This document shows positions 2,404-64,000 of a stretch of DNA of 64,000 nt, one piece after another. How positions within the stretch are numbered: the first letter of the stretch is position 1; each line of letters opens with the position of its first letter. The translations under genes were made by a program, and so were the position numbers. The notes under the pieces were generated by a model. The model had not been told where the DNA came from. It did no database searches and saw only the letters and a list, made by a program, of their open reading frames with translations. This DNA is from a virus, in the IMG/VR virus record IMGVR_UViG_3300049846_001128, positions 20,741-84,740 of that record. One strand, given 5' to 3'.

Positions 2404-5397
2404 ATGTCATTAAAGAAAACTCGTTTTCGCAAGGGTGTAATTGTAGCTCCAGATACAGACGCTTTAGAGGGAATTGAAGGTGAAATTAAGGTAGATTCTG
2501 CTGATAAAAAAATAAAGACTACTTTAGACTCAGCTTCTAGAGAAATTGTTACTAACTCCCAAGCGCAAACTCTAACTAACAAGACATTAACATCTCCTGT
2601 TTTAAATGGAGACTTAACTGGCACAGCAATTGATACTGATACGTCCCTTTCTGCTAACTCTGACACTAAAGTTGCTTCTCAAAAAGCAGTTAAAGCTTAT
2701 ATTGACGCTGGCTTGGCTTCTCAAAACGATGCTTCTGAAATTGTAGTTGTCCCAGCTGGAACCATTGCTTCTACGAATGTGCAAGATGCGCTAGAGGAAC
2801 TTGATGGAGATATTCAAGCACACCTTTCAGATACTGTAGACGCGCACGACGCTTCTACTATTTCGATTGTTGACGCTGGCGGTAATTTCACAAGCACTGA
2901 AGTTGAAGGTGCTTTGGCTGAATCTATGGACGCAGCTCAAGCTGCTCAAGCAGATGCGACTCAGGCTATTGCCGACGCTGCTGCGGCTCAGTCTGACATT
3001 GACAATCACATTGCTGACATTTCTGACGCACATGACGCTTCTGCCATTTCAAATATCCCAGCAGGGAACTTAGCTGCTACTGACGTACAAGGAGCTTTAA
3101 ACGAGCTTCAAACTGACGTTGACGCAAGACAGCCAACAATAACTGGCGCGGCTACAACAATTACAAGTTCTGATTTAACAGCTTCAAGAGCAGTGGTTTC
3201 AGACGGCTCTGGTAAAATTGCAGCATCGTCTACCACCTCCACAGAAATTGGTTACGTTTCAGGTGTAACTTCAGCAATTCAAACACAATTAAACGCCAAA
3301 GTAAGTTCTTCTGGCGGAACTTTAACCAATGGATCTGTTGTAACTCCGACAAGGCTTGACGTAAAACAAGATACAAAAGCTAATTTACTCACTTACGCAG
3401 CGTCAGCAACAAACGGACAATTAGTTTTCGCAACTGATGAAAAGAAAATGTACCAAGTTGTGGACAACGCTCTTGTCTCTGTTGGCGGAGGTTCAGCCTC
3501 CTTGGAAACAATTTTCCAACTTTTAGCCGAGGAAGAAATTACAGACTGGGCTACTGGGGACAACGCTACGTTTCTTGGCGGAGGAACTCTCTCTGGTACG
3601 TTTGTAAAAAATACTACCAACCCGCTTCAGGGCGATGCCGATTATAAATACACTCAAGCTGCAGGTTCTTTAAACGACTACTTAGCTTCTCCGGCGCAGG
3701 ACGTTGATCCTCGCTTTCGTGGCAAAGAAGTTACTCTATTCTTCCCTTACACTTATGACGGAGCTAATGACGACATTGAAGTAATTTTCTACGATGTTAC
3801 AAACGCCGCTATAATTCCAAGCTCAGCTTACATTCAAGCTGCTGCAAGCGTTACAATGTTCAAAACTAATATTGTAATTCCTTCCACTTGTGCCAGCATT
3901 AGGGTGGGTTTCCAAGTTAAGGTATTAAACTCAACCAAGATATTTGTATTTGACTCGGTTCAACTAAGCTCAGACACTACAATCTACGCTGATATTGCTA
4001 ACATTTCAGATTGGGAAGCATACACTCCTACTTTAACAGGTTTTGGAACCGCTACGTCCGTAGAATTTGAATGGAGAAGAGTTGGAGATAGTATTGAAAT
4101 TAGAGGAAAGTGGACTTCTGGTACTTCAACCGCAACAGAAGCTAGGATTAGCTTACCTAATAGCTATACTTCCGCCAACACTATTAAAATACCTTCGTTA
4201 AAAATAGCAGGTTGGGGGGGACGCACTTCCACAAGTTCTACGTATTTTGGAAGTATTTCAACTTTAATTGAACCTAGTGTACAGTATTTAACGCTAGGGC
4301 ATGGCACTAGTTCAAACTCACCTTTAGGAAAACGCAATGGCTCAGACCTTATGAGTTCTGGACAGTCTGCCTCTATATTTGCCACAATTCCGGTAGCAGG
4401 ACTTATATCTTCTAACTCCAACATTCTAACAGCTCCTGAAACATTCTCTACCGACACAGCTCCGCTTACTTACGCAGGCTCTGGCTCATACACGCTTTCT
4501 ACTCTAGCTAATGCTCCAGTAGGTACGTACATTACATTTACGTATGCGATTAATACAAACACTAGAACGCAGACTACTACAGCGCCTACGCAAACTACTA
4601 GTGATATGAATACTAATGGTATTCTTTTGTATTCAAGACCATATAACGCTGCTAGTACAGCGGCTCAACCTACTGCGATTGCTATTCAGATTGGTAAGGG
4701 GTTAAAGGGCGTAAGTCTTAATCTATATAAAAGTACGGGAAAGACAACAAGTGGTACAATTGATTCTTTAGAATTGTCAACTGGTACTATCGCTTATGGT
4801 TTAGATTATAAAGATTACAATGAAAGTACGGGTATTTTAATTTTAGATGCTGGTGTAAACTCGACTGCAGTAACAAATAAAACCTTTAGATACTCCGATG
4901 TTACAACCCAAACCTCTGGCTATCTCGTAATCAACGCAAGCAAAAACCCCGCTTTAACTGGCTTGAATATTAATGCGGTAGGTGCTAGATATACAAGCAC
5001 TTCAGGTCAAGCTATTGGAAATTCTGCTACGCTAATTACGTATGAGACTAAAGTAGCAGATACTCACGGAGCTTATAATTCTGGGGTCTACACAGTTCCA
5101 GAGACTGGTTGGTATCAGATTAATGCAAGCTATCAGACAGGTACTTCGGTCACAATAAGCACCACGGCTTCTACCTTTATATGGATGTATATAGACGGTG
5201 CGAACTACAAGACTAGTTTCGTAAGGGGCAACGGCGCATCTACAACTTACGGTGTCCACATTAGTGAGAGTGTATATCTTAGGAAAAATCAAACAGTGTC
5301 TATTTACGGGTCTAGTAGCGTCGCCACTACCGCCTCCACAGGTATTTCAGCTAACGCTTTTTCAATTGTTAAGACATCTACAGGAACAGGTAACTAA
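2404..5397 (+). CDS. Tail fibre / long virion fibre protein
   Basis: 997 aa; 'QTLTNKTLTSP', 'NVQDALEEL', 'DAHDASAIS' fibre motifs; C-terminal C1q-like segment (GVYTVPETGWYQI). Confidence 0.75.
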   Translation: MSLKKTRFRKGVIVAPDTDALEGIEGEIKVDSADKKIKTTLDSASREIVTNSQAQTLTNKTLTSPVLNGDLTGTAIDTDTSLSANSDTKVASQKAVKAYIDAGLASQNDASEIVVVPAGTIASTNVQDALEELDGDIQAHLSDTVDAHDASTISIVDAGGNFTSTEVEGALAESMDAAQAAQADATQAIADAAAAQSDIDNHIADISDAHDASAISNIPAGNLAATDVQGALNELQTDVDARQPTITGAATTITSSDLTASRAVVSDGSGKIAASSTTSTEIGYVSGVTSAIQTQLNAKVSSSGGTLTNGSVVTPTRLDVKQDTKANLLTYAASATNGQLVFATDEKKMYQVVDNALVSVGGGSASLETIFQLLAEEEITDWATGDNATFLGGGTLSGTFVKNTTNPLQGDADYKYTQAAGSLNDYLASPAQDVDPRFRGKEVTLFFPYTYDGANDDIEVIFYDVTNAAIIPSSAYIQAAASVTMFKTNIVIPSTCASIRVGFQVKVLNSTKIFVFDSVQLSSDTTIYADIANISDWEAYTPTLTGFGTATSVEFEWRRVGDSIEIRGKWTSGTSTATEARISLPNSYTSANTIKIPSLKIAGWGGRTSTSSTYFGSISTLIEPSVQYLTLGHGTSSNSPLGKRNGSDLMSSGQSASIFATIPVAGLISSNSNILTAPETFSTDTAPLTYAGSGSYTLSTLANAPVGTYITFTYAINTNTRTQTTTAPTQTTSDMNTNGILLYSRPYNAASTAAQPTAIAIQIGKGLKGVSLNLYKSTGKTTSGTIDSLELSTGTIAYGLDYKDYNESTGILILDAGVNSTAVTNKTFRYSDVTTQTSGYLVINASKNPALTGLNINAVGARYTSTSGQAIGNSATLITYETKVADTHGAYNSGVYTVPETGWYQINASYQTGTSVTISTTASTFIWMYIDGANYKTSFVRGNGASTTYGVHISESVYLRKNQTVSIYGSSSVATTASTGISANAFSIVKTSTGTGN

Positions 5398-5822: not shown

Positions 5823-5836
5823 CAACCTTATAGTGT
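5823..5836 (+). promoter_or_regulatory. Candidate late promoter motif CAACCTTATAGTGT
   Basis: GCAACCTTATAGTGTA is identical to the copy at 23522; abuts the ATG of 5837 with no SD. Confidence 0.55.
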
Positions 5837-18711: not shown

Positions 18712-21700
18712 ATGCCTAGCCTAACCGCAAGCCGTGGATTAATTACAAGTCCAAACGAGTTAGCTAGACCTGACGGAGCACTTGAAATAGCTGATAATGT
18801 TGTTATTGACTACGACAACACTATAGAACAACGTCGAGGTTTTGCTGAGTTTGGAGATGCTACTCCTGACGATGAGCAGATTAAACAATTATTAGTTTAT
18901 AAAGGTAGGATATTAAGGCATTATGCCGATAAGCTTGCGTTTGACTCTACTGGTTCAGGATCATTTGTAGAGTTTAATGGAAGTTATATGGAATTAGCCA
19001 CTAAGCTTCGTATTAAATATCTAGAGTCTAACGGAAACCTATATTTCACAACAACAGAAGGGATTAAAAAAATCTCTGCTCTTTCAGCATCTGATTTCAC
19101 ATCTAACGCGGGATATATCACAAACGCTGGTGGAGTTAAGGCTGTAGGATTAGAAGGTAAAATAAAACCAGAGGCATCTGGGTGGCTTCCGGCTCAGTCA
19201 AAAGTTGGCTACAGGATTGCTTGGGGAATAAAAGATGCTAATAATAACGTAATACGTGGTGTCCCAAGCTCTAGATTAGTTATTACAAACAGCTCTAGTG
19301 ATGTAAATATTGGTGAGAGATTTACTGTTACAGTATTGAATCATGCTGGTATTTCAGACTCTGACTATTTTACTTTTGACACTCCTTCAAACAAGTTTGC
19401 TTTGTGGTTTGATAAAACAGGTTCTGCTACAGCTCCTGTTGCTGCTGAACTTCTTAATCGCTCTCTCTATAAGGTTGACATTAAAAACTTAACCCTCGAC
19501 AACGATGTAGCTGCTCAAATTGCAGCAGTTTTATCAACTATATCAGATATTAGCGTTGAGATCAGTACGAATGAAGTAACTGTCAGCAACGTAGATGGTG
19601 GGGATGTTTTAGACGCGTCAAACGGTACTTTAGACCCTGCTGACGTAATAGTATCTACAATATATAACGGACAGACTGCGGTGGGTACTCCTGCTAATGT
19701 GCAGTTGACCTTCACAGTGCCTTACGGTGTTGATTCTGACTTATATTTCTATGAGGTTTATAGAACGGCAGTCACAACAGTAACAACTGGCGTTACATTG
19801 TCCGATCTTGATCCGGGCGATGAGTGTCAAAAAGTTTACGAGTCAGGCGTTACTCAAGCTGAAATTACTGCAGGGTCTGTAGTGGTTGATGACATCACTC
19901 CAGATACTTTCAGGGAAGGCGGAGCTTACTTATATACAAATCCTGTTACAGGAGAAGGTATATTACAAGCGAATGAAGCACCTCCTATTGCTAAAGATAT
20001 TGCCTTGTTTAAAGGCTCTGTTTTCTATGCAAACACGAAAGAAAGACACAGAAACCAGATAAACCTATTGTCAGTGTCTGACTTTATTTCAGGAAGCTCC
20101 AAAATACATATAGGTAATTCAAACGGAGTAAGAACGTACACATTTAGAGGCATTGCTGAGGTTTTGGATTTTACAGTTAAGCCCAAATCTGAAACGGTTG
20201 GAAATAGCTATGCTATCATTAACTCAGCTCAAGATAGGATTAAGTATAAAATATGGTTTGATAAAGGTGAGATTTACCATACGTTTAACTCAACAACAGA
20301 TGTTGATGATGCAACAGAAACCATCACCGTTGTTAATCATGGTTTCGCTGACGGGGACTCTGTTATAGCAGGAGGTGTTTTACCTACGGGATTAACCTCT
20401 GGTAATACTTACTATGTTATAAACAGAACCGCTAACACATTTCAACTATCTTCTATGGTTGGAGGGCTAGCTATAGATTTGACTGATGTGGTGGGAAATG
20501 GTACACTGACCCACCTCCCTATCGAACCTGTGGTAGCAGACACTATATCTCTTAGAGTAGCTCTGGAAACATACCCTGATACGCTTCAAGGCTCTGCAGA
20601 CGCTTTTGTTGATGCTTTTTTTGACATATCTGATTTCAGTCCAGAAGATCAAGGCTCTGGGTTGGTAAGAGTTTTCAACACAGACAACGGAGCATCTACT
20701 GACCCATCAGAATCCACCCCTGCTTCTAGCTGGACTATTAGTGTAAACACTCAAGGAGCTGGAGAAGACGCTGGCTTAGGCTATGTGTTATTGTCAGGAT
20801 TATCCTCTGTTGGTCAATCTGTTGAGGACACAGCTCGCTCTCTTGAGAGAGTCATAAACAAAGACCCTAATAGTTCGGTAAATGCATTTTACTTATCAGG
20901 TCCAACAGACCTTCCCGGTATTCTTCTCTTAGAGGCAAGAAGCTTGTCAGACACTGCGTTTTATGTGGCAGTTAACGACTCTACTATTTCAGATAAATGG
21001 AACCCTTCATTACCACTCTCTGCTACTATAACTGATATTCAAATAGTAGGAAACTTGTTCACTACCAGCTCCGCTCATAACTTCTCTACCGGAGATAAAG
21101 TTTACATTAACGACAATCCAAACGGTACTTCAGTGGAGTTTTCAGGAGTGTATACAGTAGCTACTACTCCAAGTGCTACAGAATTTACACTCGCTTCAAT
21201 TACTGTAACAATAAACCAATCTGCTATTAGTGGACTAGTGTTTGAAACAACAGTAGCTTCTGATAACTCTGCAAATCAGAACAGGGTTTATTTCTCTAAA
21301 CCTTACCAGCCTGAAGCTGTGCCTTTGGTTAATTACATAGACATTGGACCTAAAGATAAAGCCATTCAGAGAATATTGGCTCTGAGAGACTCTTTAATTG
21401 TTCTAAAAGAAGAAGGTGTTTACTTAATATCAGGTCCATCTGCTCCGGATTTTTCAGTAAGGCTTGTAGATAGCTCGGCTTTAACACTGGCTCCAGACAC
21501 GGCTGTTAACCTTAACAATCTTATATATGTCTTAACAACTCAAGGAGTAGTCACAGTCTCTGAAACTGGAGTTGGAGTATTATCTAGAAATATCGAGAAC
21601 AAAATTCAAGAAATTGCAAACTCTAAATATGACTACAAGCTTACCAGCTGGGGAGTGGCATCAGAGTCGGATCGTTGCTACATCATCTGGCTACCTTCTA

Positions 21701-22764
21701 AGCCATCGGACACTGTTGCAACACAGGCGTTTAGATATAACACGTTTACTCGAGCGTGGACTAGATGGACAAAACCGGCTAATTGTGGTCTAGTAAATCT
21801 CGAAGACGATAAGATTTATTTAGGAGATGCTTCTGGCAGATATTATGTACTAAGGGAAAGAAAAAATCTTGAACGACAGGACTACGCTGATCGCGACTTT
21901 ACGCTCCAGCTACCGACTGAATTCGTGAATGGTACAACTTATGATATTTCCTCAGCTATTGAAATTGAGGCAGGGGATGTGTTAGTTCAAGAACAGTATG
22001 TAGACATTAACAAGTTCAACAGAATGTTAAAAAAGTTAGACAGAGAAGTTGCTTTGTCTGGAACCTATTTGAGTGAGCTTGAAATGGTTATTGGCGATAA
22101 CATGGAAGTTTCAATACTTGCCTTGTGGAATAAACTCACCTCTGATGGAATTACGCTATCCCCTTTATCTGGAGGAAACACTGCAGTTCAACTACAAACT
22201 GACTTCAACTCCATAGTGTCAGTTTTAAACGATCCACTGTCAATAACTGGAGCTAAGGACTATAAAACAGCCGATGATTTGCTAGTTTACGAAACTCTAA
22301 TCTTGGACGTTAATATTCCTGCAAATCAAGTCACGGTAAAATTCAGCACTAACTTTCTAGTTGGAAACGTGCAAGTGTTTAAAGCCATTAAGAGTAAAGT
22401 TCAGTATGTTCCTCAGCATTTTGGAAAGCCTGAAACTACTAAGCAAATATCGGAAGGTACGTTTATATTTGACCAGACAAACTTCTGGGGAGGAACTGTT
22501 GGTTACTCAACAGACAGGTCTTATGACTTCTCCAGCATAAGCTTCACAGAGAAAGGACCGGGAAACTGGGCTGGCTTTGACTGGGGTAGTGCAGTCTGGG
22601 GAGGTGGAGGTAATGAAGTACCTGTTAGAGTTTTTGTGCCAAGAGAGAAGACTCGTTGCCGATATATTCATATCCAGTTCATGCACAGTAATGCAAGAGA
22701 GAAGTGGAGACTGTTAGGAGTATCTCTGGAACCTAGAGAAGTTTCTCCACGAGGGTACAGATAA
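18712..22764 (+). CDS. Tail nozzle / tail tubular protein B-like with inserted domains
   Basis: 1350 aa; 'ADNVVID...IEQRRGF' N-term, 'NRVYFSKPYQPEAVP' and propeller-like C-half typical of podovirus nozzles. Confidence 0.7.
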   Translation: MPSLTASRGLITSPNELARPDGALEIADNVVIDYDNTIEQRRGFAEFGDATPDDEQIKQLLVYKGRILRHYADKLAFDSTGSGSFVEFNGSYMELATKLRIKYLESNGNLYFTTTEGIKKISALSASDFTSNAGYITNAGGVKAVGLEGKIKPEASGWLPAQSKVGYRIAWGIKDANNNVIRGVPSSRLVITNSSSDVNIGERFTVTVLNHAGISDSDYFTFDTPSNKFALWFDKTGSATAPVAAELLNRSLYKVDIKNLTLDNDVAAQIAAVLSTISDISVEISTNEVTVSNVDGGDVLDASNGTLDPADVIVSTIYNGQTAVGTPANVQLTFTVPYGVDSDLYFYEVYRTAVTTVTTGVTLSDLDPGDECQKVYESGVTQAEITAGSVVVDDITPDTFREGGAYLYTNPVTGEGILQANEAPPIAKDIALFKGSVFYANTKERHRNQINLLSVSDFISGSSKIHIGNSNGVRTYTFRGIAEVLDFTVKPKSETVGNSYAIINSAQDRIKYKIWFDKGEIYHTFNSTTDVDDATETITVVNHGFADGDSVIAGGVLPTGLTSGNTYYVINRTANTFQLSSMVGGLAIDLTDVVGNGTLTHLPIEPVVADTISLRVALETYPDTLQGSADAFVDAFFDISDFSPEDQGSGLVRVFNTDNGASTDPSESTPASSWTISVNTQGAGEDAGLGYVLLSGLSSVGQSVEDTARSLERVINKDPNSSVNAFYLSGPTDLPGILLLEARSLSDTAFYVAVNDSTISDKWNPSLPLSATITDIQIVGNLFTTSSAHNFSTGDKVYINDNPNGTSVEFSGVYTVATTPSATEFTLASITVTINQSAISGLVFETTVASDNSANQNRVYFSKPYQPEAVPLVNYIDIGPKDKAIQRILALRDSLIVLKEEGVYLISGPSAPDFSVRLVDSSALTLAPDTAVNLNNLIYVLTTQGVVTVSETGVGVLSRNIENKIQEIANSKYDYKLTSWGVASESDRCYIIWLPSKPSDTVATQAFRYNTFTRAWTRWTKPANCGLVNLEDDKIYLGDASGRYYVLRERKNLERQDYADRDFTLQLPTEFVNGTTYDISSAIEIEAGDVLVQEQYVDINKFNRMLKKLDREVALSGTYLSELEMVIGDNMEVSILALWNKLTSDGITLSPLSGGNTAVQLQTDFNSIVSVLNDPLSITGAKDYKTADDLLVYETLILDVNIPANQVTVKFSTNFLVGNVQVFKAIKSKVQYVPQHFGKPETTKQISEGTFIFDQTNFWGGTVGYSTDRSYDFSSISFTEKGPGNWAGFDWGSAVWGGGGNEVPVRVFVPREKTRCRYIHIQFMHSNAREKWRLLGVSLEPREVSPRGYR

Positions 22765-23174
22765 TGGCTAAGCTCTCCGACATTAGAAGAATTATACCAG
22801 AAGACTTTGCAAAAGAAGACAGAGATGCTGCTGAGAAAATAGCTGGCTCTTATAACGAGTTCGCTGACGAGGTTTATCAGCTTATAAACGGGAACTTAGA
22901 CTTTTCCAATCTGGCAAGAAACAAAGTAACTGTTGATGTTACTTTTAAAACAGATGGCACACCCAACGTTCCAACAAATATTGGAACAACACTGTCTTCA
23001 GTCTCCATGATTCACATTGGGAATGTTCAAAACATGACCAATTCATCCGAGAGACTTACGTCCACTCCTTTTATATCGTGGACTTTTATAGGCAGTGGCA
23101 TTGTTAAGCTCAATTATGGCATTGGATTTACAGCTGGAAGAAAATATAGGTTAACGCTTGAGCTGGTTAAATAA
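22764..23174 (+). CDS. Small tail protein
   Basis: Coupled to nozzle gene; 'LINGNLDFSNL' motif. Confidence 0.55.
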   Translation: MAKLSDIRRIIPEDFAKEDRDAAEKIAGSYNEFADEVYQLINGNLDFSNLARNKVTVDVTFKTDGTPNVPTNIGTTLSSVSMIHIGNVQNMTNSSERLTSTPFISWTFIGSGIVKLNYGIGFTAGRKYRLTLELVK

Positions 23175-23189
23175 GCAATTTTAGACATA

Positions 23190-23470
23190 GCTTTACTTAT
23201 ACAGAACAATTGTTCCTTGAAAGTAAAACCAGTCGCTTGCGAGCAAATTGGGCGAAAGGCTTGGGCTTTTAACCTAAATTTCTCTCTTCTTCAGTGGTCC
23301 AAGTTAGAAGTAACACTGATACTAGCTGGCTTTCCGCTGGGTACTTAGTGGCTTTGCGACACCCAGATGACTATTTCGTTTCCTACGCCGGGTCATACAT
23401 CGGATTCACTTGTAAATCCTCTATTTCACGGTCCAAACTAGCGAAGATAAGTCCTTGATTTCTCAAAGAC
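23190..23470 (-). ncRNA. Putative structured non-coding RNA of unknown family (~280 nt)
   Basis: Intergenic, downstream of a near-consensus sigma70 promoter; several stems whose G-U pairs work only on the - strand; GAAA-capped 5' hairpin at the predicted +1. Confidence 0.6.
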
Positions 23471-23476
23471 TCTAAT

Positions 23477-23505
23477 AGTATAAAGTATTTGGTAGCTTTT
23501 GTCAA
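23477..23505 (-). promoter_or_regulatory. Sigma70-type promoter
   Basis: TTGACA-17 nt-TATACT on the - strand. Confidence 0.8.
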
Positions 23506-23522
23506 TAGAAATAGTAAATTAG

Positions 23523-23537
23523 CAACCTTATAGTGTA
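23523..23537 (+). promoter_or_regulatory. Candidate late promoter motif CAACCTTATAGTGTA
   Basis: Repeated motif upstream of the RBS of 23550. Confidence 0.55.
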
Positions 23538-23549
23538 GGTGAGGGCATA

Positions 23550-26147
23550 ATGGCATATCTACAAGATGACGAACAAGACGAGAACGCGCAAGGGTTAAAT
23601 CAAACCTTAGCACCTAGTCAAACAGCTCAGCCTGAACAAGAGCAACAACCTGCTCAACCTCAGCAAACATCGCAACCCGCCACTATCGGGTCTTCCGCTA
23701 GTCCTACCACACAAGCATCAAGCTCCCCAACACAAGTTAATCAAAAGGCTGGATCAGGTACTTTTACTAATCTTAAGAAATATTTACAAGCTAATCAGGG
23801 TAATAGAATTGCTTCTGCTGCAACTCAAAAAGTTGCCAATTTAGGAACTGGGGCGCAAAGAGGTATTCAAACCGCTCAAACTGGTTTCGGTCAGAAGGTT
23901 GAACAAGGTACTTTAAAAGACAGGCAAAAAGCTGTTCAAGACGTTACTGCCACAACTCAAGCCGCTCGTCAAGTTCAAGCTCAACAGCCTCAACAACAGC
24001 AAGGAGTTTTAGACGTTAACACTCCGACTGCCAATGCTGCTGCCACTGCCGCTCCAGCTCCTACACCTCAAGTGACTCAACCACAGTACTTAACTGATGA
24101 GCAAAAAAATCGTTTTGCTGAGGTTATTAACGCACAATACGAAGGACCGGAATCTATTCGACAAGCTGGGCTTTTACAACCAGCTCTAGAGAGAGTGCAG
24201 GAAGCAAGTCGTCAAATAAGAAACACGCAATCTACTCAAGGTCGTGAAGAGTTACTCAGATCAATGTTTGCCAAGAACCGAGACTACACTCAAGGTCAAA
24301 GCAAGCTAGACGCGTTACTTCTCAACACTTCTCAGCAGGGTGTGAATCAGTTACAACAGGCTGCAAAAGCTGGAGGAAATCTTCAACAGCAGCTTCAACA
24401 GGCTGAGAATCTGTCCCAAAACTTGGCGAAAAATCGTGCTCAGGAAATTGCTGGAATTCGCGAACAAGCTAGGAATGTTTTTACTGGCGAAAGAACTGCC
24501 GAAGAGCAAGCCACTGAGCAAAGAATTACAGACCTTATCGAAACTCCAGCAAAAGACGAGGGCGGAAATCCAATACCTAAGCTCGATGCTAAAGGAAATG
24601 CTGTACTAGACCCTGAAGGGAAACCTGTATATCTAACAGAATGGGAAAGACTTCCTGAGCATTTTCGTCAATCCTTGATGAATAAAAGTAAGTCCAACAA
24701 AGTTATCAAAGCCGAACAGATAGCAGGTCTTAAAGAGCAATATGCACCGCAGATACAAGCGTATAATGCAGCTAAAGTAAACGTAGATAATTTGCAGAAA
24801 CAGGCAAGCGATTTAAATCGCAGAATAGTTCAGGCTAGTTTTAAGATTTCAGAAGATAATGCAAATGGCGGCCCCATTGATTCAGCAGCCGAGAGGAAGT
24901 TCTTAGAAAAAGCTGCTCCAAATTTGGAAAAACTTAAGCAGCAATTAAATCAAAGTAAGAAAGAGCTATTGTCTATTGAAAAATCACCTGAGTATAAACA
25001 ATATCAAGCTCAGGTAGCTCAAGCTAATAAAATGAACATGAATCAGTGGGTGCTTTCTCCAGAAGAGGCGGCAATTCTTGGCGTTGCTTCAGGTGAAGGC
25101 TTGTATAACATGCGCCCAGATGACATTCGCACAGTTCAGGCTGAGCGTGAAAAATTAATCACTCAGGATGAATTTGCCAGACAACAAGCTCTGGCTCAAT
25201 TAGCTGGACTTGACGCTGCAAAATTACTACAAAAAGATTTAAAGTATAAAGATCAATCAAAAGCAGGAACTCAGAATTTAATGAGTGCCTTAGATACTGA
25301 AGCGTTTAGAAACCAGCTCAATGAAGCCCAAAGACTTTTTGAAGAAAGCGCAGAAGGAGCAACTCTAACAGGAGTCGGTAAGAAGAAAGTATCTCGCGGA
25401 AATATGTTTGGTAAGAAAACAAAGACTTACAAAGCTCAAGTTAAAGGCAATGTTGCTGACATGCTTAAACAAGCTGGTTACGATATTGACAAGATTGACC
25501 CCGGACAAGCTCAATCAATCCTAACAGATGAAGACATGCTTAGCCGATTTCTCGGAGCCACAGACACACAAAGAGCGGAACAGGGAAATGTAGGTTTTAG
25601 CGGAGCTGAAGGTTCCGTAACAGGAGCTGGTGTAGGCACAACAGTAGGCTCTGCCGTACCGGGAGTTGGGACAGGAATCGGAGCTGCAATTGGGGCAGGA
25701 GTGGGTGGAGCTGTTGGAACTAATAGTAGTCTTGACAATCTGCAATATACATCAGACATGCTCAAAGAACTTGAAGAAAAGTTTGGAATTAAAGGAGCTG
25801 GAGCGATAGGTCAAGCTATTCAAACAGGAAGATCAAAAGCTGGGGATTTAGCCGGAACTTACTTACAATTAAATCCATTCACTAATGTTGTGGATGATGT
25901 TGGTAAGAAATTAGGGCTTGGTTCTTTATCGAGTGGAATTGCTGGAGCCATCGGTGGAATTGATACTGGAGCTATGAAAGCCTACGGAAGTGCTATTGCC
26001 AAAAGAAACGCCATTATGGATTTAGAGAAGAAGTACGCCAATTATTTGAAAGGTCAAGGTTTTGCAAATCGTGCCAATATCGCAGACACCGAGACAACTC
26101 GCGCTAGAACCCAAGCACTTCTTGATTTATTAAGCAGGAAGGGTTAA
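23550..26147 (+). CDS. Internal virion (ejection) protein
   Basis: Gln/Ala-rich helical protein with a glycine-zipper hydrophobic segment; position after the nozzle. Confidence 0.6.
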   Translation: MAYLQDDEQDENAQGLNQTLAPSQTAQPEQEQQPAQPQQTSQPATIGSSASPTTQASSSPTQVNQKAGSGTFTNLKKYLQANQGNRIASAATQKVANLGTGAQRGIQTAQTGFGQKVEQGTLKDRQKAVQDVTATTQAARQVQAQQPQQQQGVLDVNTPTANAAATAAPAPTPQVTQPQYLTDEQKNRFAEVINAQYEGPESIRQAGLLQPALERVQEASRQIRNTQSTQGREELLRSMFAKNRDYTQGQSKLDALLLNTSQQGVNQLQQAAKAGGNLQQQLQQAENLSQNLAKNRAQEIAGIREQARNVFTGERTAEEQATEQRITDLIETPAKDEGGNPIPKLDAKGNAVLDPEGKPVYLTEWERLPEHFRQSLMNKSKSNKVIKAEQIAGLKEQYAPQIQAYNAAKVNVDNLQKQASDLNRRIVQASFKISEDNANGGPIDSAAERKFLEKAAPNLEKLKQQLNQSKKELLSIEKSPEYKQYQAQVAQANKMNMNQWVLSPEEAAILGVASGEGLYNMRPDDIRTVQAEREKLITQDEFARQQALAQLAGLDAAKLLQKDLKYKDQSKAGTQNLMSALDTEAFRNQLNEAQRLFEESAEGATLTGVGKKKVSRGNMFGKKTKTYKAQVKGNVADMLKQAGYDIDKIDPGQAQSILTDEDMLSRFLGATDTQRAEQGNVGFSGAEGSVTGAGVGTTVGSAVPGVGTGIGAAIGAGVGGAVGTNSSLDNLQYTSDMLKELEEKFGIKGAGAIGQAIQTGRSKAGDLAGTYLQLNPFTNVVDDVGKKLGLGSLSSGIAGAIGGIDTGAMKAYGSAIAKRNAIMDLEKKYANYLKGQGFANRANIADTETTRARTQALLDLLSRKG

Positions 26148-61181: not shown

Positions 61182-61393
61182 AAAAGAGCCTCTATTAGAG
61201 GAGTTACTTGTATTAAACGATTATCATAGTAAATCTTCGATTTATAACCTACAAGTGAATCATGTTTTGATGCTATTAAATAACAGAAATTGTAGCATTT
61301 CTTAATCTCATCATACCCTGTTATCTCAATTAAAACAATTTCACCATCATGTCCCCAGTGAGGGTCTAGGTACTTCTTACCTATTTCTAGCAT
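61178..61393 (-). CDS. Tag-family SH3-like small protein
   Basis: MLEIGKKY...QVTPLIEALL*. Confidence 0.75.
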   Translation of the reverse strand: MLEIGKKYLDPHWGHDGEIVLIEITGYDEIKKCYNFCYLIASKHDSLVGYKSKIYYDNRLIQVTPLIEALL

Positions 61394-62202
61394 TCTTTGT
61401 CCTTAATATAAATAGCTTTTTTCATGTTATGTTTTGGACAATATGTTTTGTGTATACTGAAAAGTTTAAACTTTCGATCAAGGTAAATACTAGAATCTTT
61501 GTATATATAATCCAAGAATGCCAAGAACGATCTACCTGTATATTTTATAGACATTCCTTTTTTATTAAAATAAGCTATAATATTTGCTTTATGGTAAATT
61601 CCCAAAAGCATATCAATAGAATTAGTGGTATAGCCACAACTAGGAATACCGTGATGATCTAGTGACTTAGCTACCCAACCATCTCCATCGAAAAAACCTC
61701 TTATAAAATGCCTATAGTTCTCTTCTGAAAGACCTAAAGGAAATTTTATACTATGACTTTTCTTATGAGATTTTGAATTATAATCTATACCTAACAATAA
61801 GCATAAATCTTGACACATACGCTTAGATGATATCGTTAATTCACAAAAATTCCCCTCTATCATTTTTATTGGAGATTCTATACTTAAATAGTGCTTTAAT
61901 TTTTCTAAAATGTCAATATCTTTTTTGTTAATTTTTATGACAATTTGCCTTTTTCTAACATGTCCATCCGAAGCTATAAAGCCTAAAAAATATGAAGAAT
62001 ACTCATTCAAGTTAGAAGCATCAGAAAACATCAAATCATCTAAACTTTTAAATAAACATGAAGGATTATTCCTCCCAGCTCTTTTACCTATACTATATTT
62101 AATCTTACAAGCATTCCCACAAAAATGATCTTTATACATTGCTAACCGAGATGGTTTTCGATGAATTTCTTTGCTACAACTTGAACAGTTAATAATTGGC
62201 AT
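61387..62202 (-). mobile_element. Free-standing LAGLIDADG homing endonuclease with N-terminal zinc finger
   Basis: 'YFLGFIASDG' and 'HFIRGFFDGDG'; CxxC...CGNAC; markedly AT-rich. Confidence 0.85.
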
Positions 62203-63410
62203 TACGGTCTATCCTGTATTCTTATTACCTTTCCAAAATCAGCAGGAGCCGGAGAGTTACGAACCAATGCCCAAAGAAACGGAATTTTAGGGTCTTCTGG
62301 TCTATCTGCACAGTCACCATCTCCAAAATATAATATACCATCAACCTTCAACGATTTGGCATGTTTTATTGGACCATTGTAGGCTGTTCCACCTCTCCCT
62401 TTAAAGTCAGGCTGCTTCTTTGAGTCAAACTCATAAACATTCTTAACGTCACAGTCAGCCTCAATAACAGTTATTTTAACCCCACACTTATGAATGGCTT
62501 CCATCTCTGTCCAAAACATTGCCAACTCTTTGTCGGAAACTGAGCCGGAAGTGTCAACACAAAGCCCTAAATGAAGCTCAGGCTTGCGTTTTGAGCCGGG
62601 CTGTAGGATTCCATAGCGACGGTTTCTGCGCTTTCTCGTAGCCATTTTTAGGCTCTTCTGAGTATTAACGTAAAACTGTCTTAGCTGTTGCTTCCAGTTT
62701 ACTTGGCTTTCATTAAGCTTTGCTACAATGGCTGCAATGTCACCAGAAACATTACCAATTCCACCAGCGTTTTTAACGGCTTTGTTCACAGCGTCTTTGA
62801 TAACTTCTTTTTGAACCTCGGCAGAGCCTTCTGACTTCTCCCATTGGCTATGGTCGTCGGCAGTTTCTCCCATTCCATCCCCTGATTGAGGTAAGAGGTC
62901 TTGGTTTTGTTCGGCAAATTCATTAATTTTATTGTAATAATACTCTGCCAATTCTCCTTCAGTCATGGGAGAGAAAGTTCTTTGATCAGCTTTATTCTCA
63001 GGCTTTTGATTATGCTCGTCAACCATTGACTTAAGCTTTTCATTAAGCTTTGCAACAGTAACCCCTCCAACAGTGTTGGTGAAATCTATTAAGTCGTTTC
63101 TGTTAATAGTGGCATCGGTTGAAATATTAAATCGCTTGTGTAGTTCTTTTGAAGTTGCACCAATTTGCTTAGCTCTTGAAATATGTTCGCGGAAAATATG
63201 TTCACACTCATGCTTTAAAAGCTTACAAGCGTGGTTAAGGCTTAAATTATTAACAAAGTCAGGGTTATAAACCATGTTTACTTTGTCAGTTATATAAACT
63301 CCAGCAGAGGGACAAGTTTTATCAACAGTAATTTTCATGTTTAATAGTAAATGCCCGTAAAAAGGCTCAGCGTGAGTTAGGGCGATGATTGCTTCTCTAA
63401 GTCTGTTCAT
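62202..63410 (-). CDS. DUF2201-type metallopeptidase + VWA-like domain protein
   Basis: 'HECEH' HExxH, 'DDHSQW', MIDAS 'DTSGS', 'GRGGT', 'FGDG'. Confidence 0.85.
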   Translation of the reverse strand: MNRLREAIIALTHAEPFYGHLLLNMKITVDKTCPSAGVYITDKVNMVYNPDFVNNLSLNHACKLLKHECEHIFREHISRAKQIGATSKELHKRFNISTDATINRNDLIDFTNTVGGVTVAKLNEKLKSMVDEHNQKPENKADQRTFSPMTEGELAEYYYNKINEFAEQNQDLLPQSGDGMGETADDHSQWEKSEGSAEVQKEVIKDAVNKAVKNAGGIGNVSGDIAAIVAKLNESQVNWKQQLRQFYVNTQKSLKMATRKRRNRRYGILQPGSKRKPELHLGLCVDTSGSVSDKELAMFWTEMEAIHKCGVKITVIEADCDVKNVYEFDSKKQPDFKGRGGTAYNGPIKHAKSLKVDGILYFGDGDCADRPEDPKIPFLWALVRNSPAPADFGKVIRIQDRP

Positions 63411-63418
63411 AAATACTC

Positions 63419-64000
63419 CTACAAAAGAGATAGGTTAAGTAAAGTTTCAGCAGTGACTCCGTGAGATGCGTAAATTCCGTACCCATCTCGGTACTCCAAA
63501 GCCTTAAGCTCATTATGATGCAATTTGCCATCTTTGTCAATGGAAATTCTCATGGGAAAGTCAGAAAGAATTGCAATTTCTGGAAACAAATAACTGTGGT
63601 GAAATTCCTTAGAATGTTCACAATACTCTGAAAAAAGACCAAAATCTTTTATACTATTTGGGAATAACTCATTCAGTAAAAAGTCATAATACCAATAATA
63701 GGATTGATTCCAGTTTGAAATAGCTTCCCAAACAAGTTGGCTATCAAGTTGGCTATCAAGTTGGCTATAAAGTTGGCTATCAAGTTGGCTATCAAGTTGG
63801 CTATAAAGTTGGCTATCAAGTTGGCTATAAAGTTGGCTACGAAGTCGGCTATAAAGTTGGCTATCAAGTTGGCTATCAAGTTGGCTATAAAGTTGGCTAT
63901 CAAGTTGGCTATCAAGTTGGCTATAAAGTTGGCTATCAAGTTGGCTATAAAGTTGGCTACGAAGTCGGCTATAAAGTCGGCTATCAAGTTGGCTATCAAG
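63419..64000 (-). CDS. DUF6745-like protein with (L-D/Y/R-S-Q/R)n repeat (5' truncated; not in ORF track)
   Basis: Open frame LDSQLDSRLYSRLRSQ...then 'SDFPMRISIDKDGKLHHNELKALEYRDGYGIYASHGV', ends ETLLNLSLL*. Confidence 0.75.
   Translation of the reverse strand, partial: LDSQLDSRLYSRLRSQLYSQLDSQLYSQLDSQLDSQLYSQLDSQLDSQLYSRLRSQLYSQLDSQLYSQLDSQLDSQLYSQLDSQLDSQLVWEAISNWNQSYYWYYDFLLNELFPNSIKDFGLFSEYCEHSKEFHHSYLFPEIAILSDFPMRISIDKDGKLHHNELKALEYRDGYGIYASHGVTAETLLNLSLL
63734..64000. repeat. 12-bp tandem repeat (AAGTTGGCTATC/A), about 22 copies, with 120-bp higher-order period
   Basis: Direct reading; 63781-63840 is identical to 63901-63960. Confidence 0.95.

Follow-up and report, generated by a model that had tools for sequence, protein, structure and literature searches.

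Why is a gap of 375 bp left between two genes of a phage whose late genes are otherwise tightly packed? The gap lies at 23175-23549 of the 64,000-nt stretch of DNA analysed here (the window), which covers positions 20741-84740 of the 84,740-bp IMG/VR virus record IMGVR_UViG_3300049846_001128, estimated to be complete. It separates two plus-strand open reading frames (ORFs), at 22764-23174 and 23550-26147. A preliminary description made from the window alone had recognised this gap and proposed that it encodes a structured RNA of about 280 nt, transcribed antisense to the late region from its own sigma70 promoter. Our analysis of the locus and its relatives revealed what marks a structured non-coding RNA (ncRNA) in general, namely compensatory changes beyond controls and an own promoter kept in position. 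These results indicate that the gap is very probably the gene for a minus-strand structured ncRNA of about 290 nt.

To collect homologues, we used both the neighbouring proteins and the RNA itself. The 865-amino-acid protein encoded downstream of the gap has 104 homologues in metagenomes, and an alignment of 28 of them led to 12 loci on viral contigs; a scan of the viral contigs with the single protein as query had found no relatives. Gap-like DNA, 75-84% identical, was present in 8 of these 12 loci, where the flanking protein was merely 40-51% identical. Scanning metagenome contigs with a motif of the RNA gave a further set of 12 loci, and the exact motif had no match in bacterial and archaeal genomes. 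Once identical copies were dropped (L010=L009, L033=L024, L026=L004, L025=L006, L027=L008 and L022=L029=L002), 21 rows were reduced to 14 distinct sequences. A scan with an alignment of the 136-amino-acid protein encoded upstream contributed L043 and the divergent L049, raising the number to 16. L049 scored 50.5 bits (E = 1.4e-11) against a covariance model of the RNA core (172 positions). Ten of the 16 sequences were retrieved through neighbouring proteins, independently of the RNA sequence, and six through the RNA motif. All of them come from related uncultured freshwater phages and lie in the corresponding slot. In 7 of the 8 relatives compared, DNA identity to the window was higher in the RNA (72-76%) than in the two flanking genes (62-69% and 55-62%), the exception being L049 (54%).

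We then assessed the fold. The RNAalifold consensus contains 79 pairs in 14 helices, and in the 16-sequence alignment 96.8% of the 1226 pair cells were paired. Both sides had changed in 28 of the 79 pairs, compared with 2-10 in six slid controls, and none of 500 shuffles reached the covariation score, the consensus having been derived from the same sequences on which covariation was counted. The 14-sequence alignment gave similar values: 97.5% of cells were paired, 26 pairs had changed on both sides (slid controls, 3-7), and again none of 500 shuffles reached the score. The minus strand of the window (23475-23175) folded with a minimum free energy (MFE) of -83.4 kcal/mol (z = -2.93), which 1 of 100 shuffles equalled, while the plus strand gave z = -1.01 and was equalled by 15 of 100. 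G-U pairs occupied 147 cells, and four pairs were G-U in all sequences. When the identical pairs were read by strand, the minus strand gave 96.8% standard pairs and the plus strand 85.8%. The RNA was assigned to the minus strand on the basis of the invariant G-U pairs and this difference in pairing, in agreement with the preliminary description, which had argued for that strand from its G-U pairs.

The predicted RNA and its parts are as follows.

23183-23470, minus strand: the structured ncRNA, about 290 nt; its predicted 5' end lies some 7 nt beyond the -10 element, and its 3' end is assumed, being taken at the end of a conserved CUAUGUC past the last helix.
23449-23472, minus strand: P1, the 5'-terminal hairpin, with a GAAA loop in the window; 3 of 5 pairs changed on both sides among 14 sequences.
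23449-23443 with 23289-23283, minus strand: P2, a long-range helix that encloses the central domain and P9.
23321-23442, minus strand: the central domain, in which P3 and P4 close a junction carrying P5, P6/P7 and P8; the most conserved part.
23319-23291, minus strand: the P9 hairpin; 6 of 7 pairs changed on both sides among 16 sequences.
23264-23274, minus strand: P10, a small hairpin (GGUU-AAA-AGCC) whose 5' strand could pair with the P8 loop instead.
Minus strand: P11/12, a variable helix, in the window TTGCT-CGCA-AGCGA.
23188-23231, minus strand: P13/P14, the 3'-terminal hairpin, A+U-rich, with no U run after it.

The stems read from the window in the preliminary description were recovered: the P1 hairpin, GCTAGTTTGG/CCAGCTAGT (P3), GGATTTAC/GTGAATCC (P5), ATGAC/GTCAT (P6), CTGGGT/ACCCAG (P8), TCAGTG/CACTGA (P9) and GGTTTTACTT/AAGTAAAGCT (P13) all appear in the MFE fold and show compensatory changes in relatives, and the TTGCT-CGCA-AGCGA stem is the window's own form of P11/12. 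P1 varies in sequence among the relatives and keeps its hairpin shape, and helices 3-8 were 98-100% paired. The core model is a branched fold with three branch points. In the central domain of 14 sequences, invariant columns made up 44 of the 50 that are unpaired and 52 of the 72 that are paired, an invariance that is partly by construction because the retrieval motif spans 24 positions.

The divergent homologue L049 showed which parts of the core persist. Its P3 is kept through compensatory changes, and the CCGUGAAAUAGAG junction, P8 and GCGGAAGGC are likewise retained; P5 is reduced to a GAAA-capped stub, P6/P7 is altered and P9 is absent. The P8 loop (region 23337-23366) and the 5' strand of P10 also changed together: 15 sequences combine AACC and GGUU, and L049 combines AAGG and CCUU; in the window and L008 the P8 loop reads AGCC rather than AACC. 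This exchange is suggestive of pairing between the two, as a pseudoknot or an intermolecular kissing contact; it occurs in one lineage and competes with local formation of P10. An all-against-all search of column covariation for pseudoknots gave a signal that was too noisy, with a few lineages dominating.

We further investigated how the RNA would be transcribed. The features concerned are listed below.

23477-23505, minus strand: the RNA's sigma70-type promoter, with the -35 element TTGACA at 23505-23500, a 17-nt spacer and the -10 element TATACT at 23482-23477.
23522-23532, plus strand: the late-promoter-like motif GCAACCTTATA, back-to-back with the RNA promoter; the ATG of the 865-amino-acid gene follows after 18 nt.
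Genome 11957, 17529, 22633, 26564 and 44264, plus strand: copies of GCAACCTTATA, the first two outside the window.

The leftward TTGACA-N17-TATACT promoter claimed in the preliminary description scored 11/12. An equivalent promoter (TTGnnn, 16-17 nt, TAnnnT), with activity predicted from sequence, was found at the matching aligned place in all 16 homologues; it was located by script in 15 and by reading the sequence in L049. A TGn extended -10 element is present in 15 of the 16, and the window version has better hexamers instead. A genome-wide scan revealed 16 sigma70-type sites scoring at least 11/12, of which 14 are minus-strand sites. The early region holds a minus-strand cluster of 11, among small early ORFs (genome 444-10750, together with 84280, which is window 63540). 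Since these 11 sites match at 11-12/12, the host probably uses canonical TTGACA/TATAAT promoters. The only site of at least 11/12 in the 40-kb late arm is the RNA promoter.

The late-promoter motif that had been noticed back-to-back with this promoter also held up. GCAACCTTATA occurs in five exact copies in the genome, all on the plus strand and each placed some 13-32 nt ahead of a late-gene start codon; those within the window lie at 1893-1901, at 5824-5832 and at the RNA gap, and the gap copy has a conserved counterpart in the relatives. A variant, TAGCACCCTTATG, was seen upstream of the major head gene, near window 420. GCAACCTTATA is probably the late promoter of the phage, consisting of a -10-like element alone. 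The promoter set thus marks a phage with consensus sigma70 promoters for early genes and a distinct GCAACCTTATA for late genes; the RNA gene belongs to the early class by promoter type and lies where two late operons meet. Behind the RNA there is no intrinsic terminator, and none was found in 22000-25000; the nearest minus-strand terminator-like candidate is weak and lies at 20016, about 3.2 kb downstream.

The slot was then compared in the records of 14 relatives. Ten carry the RNA described above, here called type 1 (L002, L004, L005, L006, L008, L009, L010, L011, L043 and L049), two carry another structured RNA, one carries other sequence and one has no gap. The RNA is therefore accessory in the clade. 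The second RNA, type 2, is a conserved sequence of about 330 nt at L003:2555-2885 and L012:1985-2315, both on the minus strand, with slot and strand as in type 1. Its fold shows nine doubly changed pairs between just these two sequences and many G-U pairs, and with filters off it had no detectable relation to the type-1 core model (best E 1.6). At L012:2323-2865 (minus strand), between the promoter and the type-2 RNA, lies an ORF of 180 amino acids with a DUF559/Vsr-like nuclease domain and a zinc ribbon, which has the appearance of a free-standing homing endonuclease inserted into the slot; its position indicates that the unit is read on the minus strand. L013 has at 2694-2885 (minus strand) a perfect TTGACA-17-TATAAT; the next 150 nt or so are related to neither type 1 nor type 2 and fold no better than shuffles (z = 0.05). 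In L007 the gap is merely about 50 nt and holds no such unit. The core model found no type-1 copy elsewhere in L003, L012, L013 and L007 in the parts searched, which are 31-50% complete.

Comparison with known families supported the earlier proposal that the RNA is new to catalogues. Rfam 15 (4227 models) gave no match in the whole window at gathering thresholds, none in 23000-23700 at E up to 10, including ribozyme families, GOLLD and ROOL, and none in six relatives' loci covering type-1, type-2 and L013-type slots at E up to 1. ARAGORN found no transfer RNA or transfer-messenger RNA genes in the window. Full-text searching of the literature found no description of the RNA or the phage clade, which does not prove that they are unpublished. 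The RNA is a new family, joining the orphan structured RNAs of phages, and it is unusual in having an early host-type promoter placed backwards at a late-operon boundary and alternative RNAs in one slot. Three known kinds of RNA were considered and rejected. A ToxI-like type III antitoxin RNA requires tandem direct repeats of a short unit, and the gap has no tandem repeats and no direct repeats of at least 12 nt; the suggestion of an antitoxin mimic thus found no support. 6S RNA needs a single long helix with a large central bubble, in contrast to the branched 14-helix fold found here, and no Rfam match to it appeared. A phi29-type pRNA, presumably among the Rfam models, gave no match either, and the phage has a classical large terminase and a P22-type portal.

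The surroundings of the gap were examined in the same way. The late arm consists of plus-strand genes at genome 11970-52436 (about 40 kb), encoding terminase, P22-type portal, major head protein, tail proteins and internal-virion-like proteins. The remaining genes, on the minus strand, form the early/replication arm, with family B polymerase, ribonucleotide reductase, DnaB-like helicase, ERF and ClpP. The large terminase has a T4-type N-terminal domain (E = 1.5e-12). The genes on either side of the RNA are as follows.

22764-23174, plus strand: the upstream late gene, 136 amino acids, no family; it closes a long late operon whose direction is convergent with that of the RNA gene.
23550-26147, plus strand: the downstream late gene, 865 amino acids, Gln- and Gly-rich, no family; it served as the query for relatives.

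Searches of PDB sequences with both flanking proteins gave no useful match. The structured part of the RNA (23183-23470) overlaps no ORF; composition shows no local shift at the RNA site, and cumulative GC skew tracks gene orientation. The DNA sequencing runs that contain the region are labelled freshwater, and contigs from four DNA runs over the region gave near-identical fragments alone, with no new variants. No cultured relative was found in the GenBank phage collection by blastn of the region or by tblastn of the 865-amino-acid protein; within that collection the phage polymerase had distant matches at most, to Salinibacter phages (28% identity or less).

Several other features of the genome were also observed. 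Both record ends (window 63673-64000 and genome 1-150) consist of 12-nt tandem repeats (GGCTATAAAGTT-like) inside an ORF. Probably the assembly ended within a repeat, in a genome that is circularly permuted or circular. A LAGLIDADG endonuclease-like ORF (window 61387-62202, minus strand) adjoins a DUF2201 metallopeptidase/VWA protein (62202-63410, minus strand). A MoxR-type AAA ATPase is encoded across the record ends from these two (genome 445-1617, minus strand); together with the DUF2201/VWA protein it looks like a MoxR-VWA pair of the early arm. Outside the window, an early protein of 93 amino acids (genome 4507-4788, minus strand) has a WYL_2 Sm-like beta-barrel domain (E = 1.5e-10), and could conceivably be an RNA-binding partner of the RNA.

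What the RNA does was considered on this basis. We tentatively favour, as a prospect not far short of even, an early, stable, trans-acting folded RNA that would bind a protein or small ligand of host or phage. This reading is favoured because constraint is strongest on the unpaired nucleotides, no gene is overlapped by the fold and the distribution is accessory; the 5' hairpin, which changes in sequence but holds its shape, points the same way. Unpaired positions more conserved than paired ones are typical of RNAs with tertiary contacts or binding sites, and the presence of the RNA in 10 of 14 relatives was counted for a trans-acting role because it resembles that of host-interaction genes. 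Unmodified host RNA polymerase would transcribe the RNA early in infection, and the terminal hairpins would stabilise it. It would then work in trans as a decoy, sponge, scaffold or component of a ribonucleoprotein, and not by simple base pairing. Later in infection, late transcription converging from the upstream operon would shut it off and thereby limit its action to the early phase. It is also possible, although on the whole doubtful, that the slot is a dedicated early-RNA locus of the clade, holding at least two unrelated ornate RNAs that serve as RNA-only effectors of host takeover or counter-defence. Such RNAs might act as a decoy of a nucleic-acid sensor or nuclease of the host, might reprogram host RNA polymerase, or might be a new ribozyme or self-assembling RNA, and each would be switched off automatically once convergent late transcription begins.

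Several points count against a trans-acting role or weaken the evidence behind it. As six of the 16 homologues were retrieved by the RNA motif, the apparent invariance of 24 loop and junction positions is inflated; the 16 also group into about six lineages, so that the cell counts overstate the number of independent compensatory events. With no intrinsic terminator behind it, the RNA may be the 5' part of a longer antisense transcript. Read-through into the 136-amino-acid gene, which is possible, would give it the overlap with an opposite-strand gene that characterises cis-antisense RNAs of the PAK_P3 kind. In addition, L003 and L012 keep the type-1 slot, strand and kind of promoter with a different structured RNA, and an unrelated RNA in the slot means that a position-dependent (cis) role fits at least as well. 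One such role, the main rival and in our view somewhat unlikely, is a cis-acting element directed against the late genes: the early promoter would fire against the late operon and the RNA would be the leader of a long antisense transcript, either stabilising it or making polymerase resistant to termination as put RNAs do, and leaky late expression would be silenced early by transcriptional interference or duplex formation. It is consistent with the only strong sigma70-type promoter of the late arm being aimed against late genes, with the 3.2 kb that separate the RNA from the first weak minus-strand terminator candidate, with the non-homologous structured RNA of L003 and L012 in unchanged slot and orientation, and with the L012 unit being read on the minus strand with an endonuclease ORF between promoter and RNA. 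Early antisense RNAs in the structural region of Pseudomonas phage PAK_P3 offer a precedent (PMC4933390). However, no gene is covered by the structured part, the site in L007 holds no unit of this kind, transcription into the 136-amino-acid gene is conjecture, and near-invariant unpaired nucleotides (44/50) are unnecessary for simple antisense or interference. These nucleotides, in a multi-helix junction, would also suit a catalytic or self-assembling RNA, that is, a new ribozyme or an RNA-only multimer like GOLLD and ROOL, as would the possible pairing of the P8 loop with P10 within or between molecules; ornate phage-linked RNAs from lakes are known (bioRxiv 10.1101/2024.12.08.627333). We consider this improbable, since no Rfam ribozyme, GOLLD or ROOL match appeared even at E up to 10 and the putative kissing pair comes from one lineage and is explained equally well by local P10. 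With about 290 nt the RNA is, moreover, far smaller than GOLLD and ROOL.

The remaining explanations are less probable still. The preliminary description had also listed a replication-primer RNA, in which a host-polymerase transcript forms a persistent hybrid that primes DNA synthesis, as do the transcripts of T4 oriF and oriG and ColE1 RNA II. The early host-type promoter, directed into structured non-coding sequence in a phage with its own family B polymerase and DnaB-like helicase, would fit an origin of this kind, but the element is missing in 1 and replaced in 3 of 14 relatives, the site shows neither a change of composition nor a skew beyond that of gene orientation, and covariation that includes G-U pairs indicates that the conserved thing is the RNA fold and not a hybrid-forming tract. 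A primer is therefore disfavoured and, in our view, very improbable. Even less credible is a packaging RNA like phi29 pRNA as part of the DNA-packaging motor: although the RNA would be stable, structured, driven by a host promoter and built around a junction, and lies in the virion-gene block of a phage with a family B polymerase, the terminase and portal are of the classical and P22 types, Rfam gives no match, 4 of 14 relatives lack the RNA or have it replaced, and its expression is predicted to be early, not late. A small late protein of about 50-60 codons encoded on the plus strand is comparably far from likely. The frame in question is the following.

23294-23458, plus strand: the open frame in the window, which starts with GTG and has no ATG; in relatives it opens just past a stop.

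No stop interrupts this frame across the RNA core in any of the 14 aligned sequences; it is open but shifted in L049 and L043, matches the flanking late genes in orientation and shows a slight excess of variable columns at third codon positions (8, 9 and 13 by position). Against a protein, it has no start conserved in relatives, non-synonymous exceeded synonymous changes in 5 of 5 pairs (for example 11 vs 6 and 14 vs 4), and the substitutions are paired and compensatory. The distance between two conserved nucleotide blocks is 66 nt in L049 instead of 80 nt, and the second is read in another frame with its nucleotides unchanged, so that the frame is not kept between them. The open frame is best seen as a by-product of nucleotide conservation.

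To our knowledge, few phage-encoded structured RNAs have a known role; those that have been characterised, such as pRNA, put RNA and the anti-CRISPR RNAs, each opened a field. The locus described here adds a well-supported new RNA family from an uncultured freshwater phage clade, with a clear expression logic in which a host-type early promoter is placed backwards at a late-operon boundary. Relatives with another RNA or none in the slot form a natural comparison set, and the RNA is short enough for synthesis, probing, pull-down and imaging. The split between early sigma70 promoters and late GCAACCTTATA is of use for annotating the clade and restricts the candidate hosts to bacteria whose sigma70 promoters are canonical.

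Finally, we compared the RNA with known systems. In phage PAK_P3, the passages on early antisense RNAs place 15 of 20 in the structural region and all but one of the 20 within genes, and propose that they keep late genes off early (PMC4933390). Both those RNAs and the one described here are minus-sense units inside the late block with early expression, which is predicted in our case. The RNA here is wholly intergenic and has a covariation-supported 14-helix fold, whereas the passages on the PAK_P3 antisense RNAs report no conserved fold.

Among structured phage RNAs, phi29 pRNA is a stable product of host polymerase, encoded by a phage and with a helical junction at its centre, and the RNA here is predicted to share these traits. 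The present RNA differs from it in belonging to a phage with terminase-type packaging, in not being universal in relatives, in its larger size and in having no Rfam match. The put RNAs of HK022 are about 70 nt long, with two stem-loops, and act in cis in processive antitermination. Like them, the RNA here is structured, lies directly downstream of a host-type promoter and has no terminator behind it, and by analogy it could act on the polymerase that makes it; unlike them, it has 14 helices, and the type-2 RNA of L012 follows an ORF and not the promoter directly. 6S RNA is abundant and stable, forms one long helix with a central bubble and binds host RNA polymerase. By analogy the RNA here would resemble 6S in abundance, stability and possible binding of a host protein; it is branched, unlike 6S, and no Rfam 6S match was found.

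GOLLD and ROOL are orphan ornate RNAs known from phages and from metagenomes of lakes or the rumen, and have recently been reported to form RNA-only multimers. They share with the RNA described here the character of large, conserved, multi-helix phage ncRNAs from environmental sequence, including lakes, with highly conserved loops and junctions. They are several hundred nucleotides longer than about 290 nt, and the RNA here matches neither in sequence or structure (Rfam 15). In contrast to GOLLD and ROOL, it does not lie beside transfer RNA genes, of which the window has none, and it has an early sigma70-type promoter of its own, facing backwards where two late operons meet.

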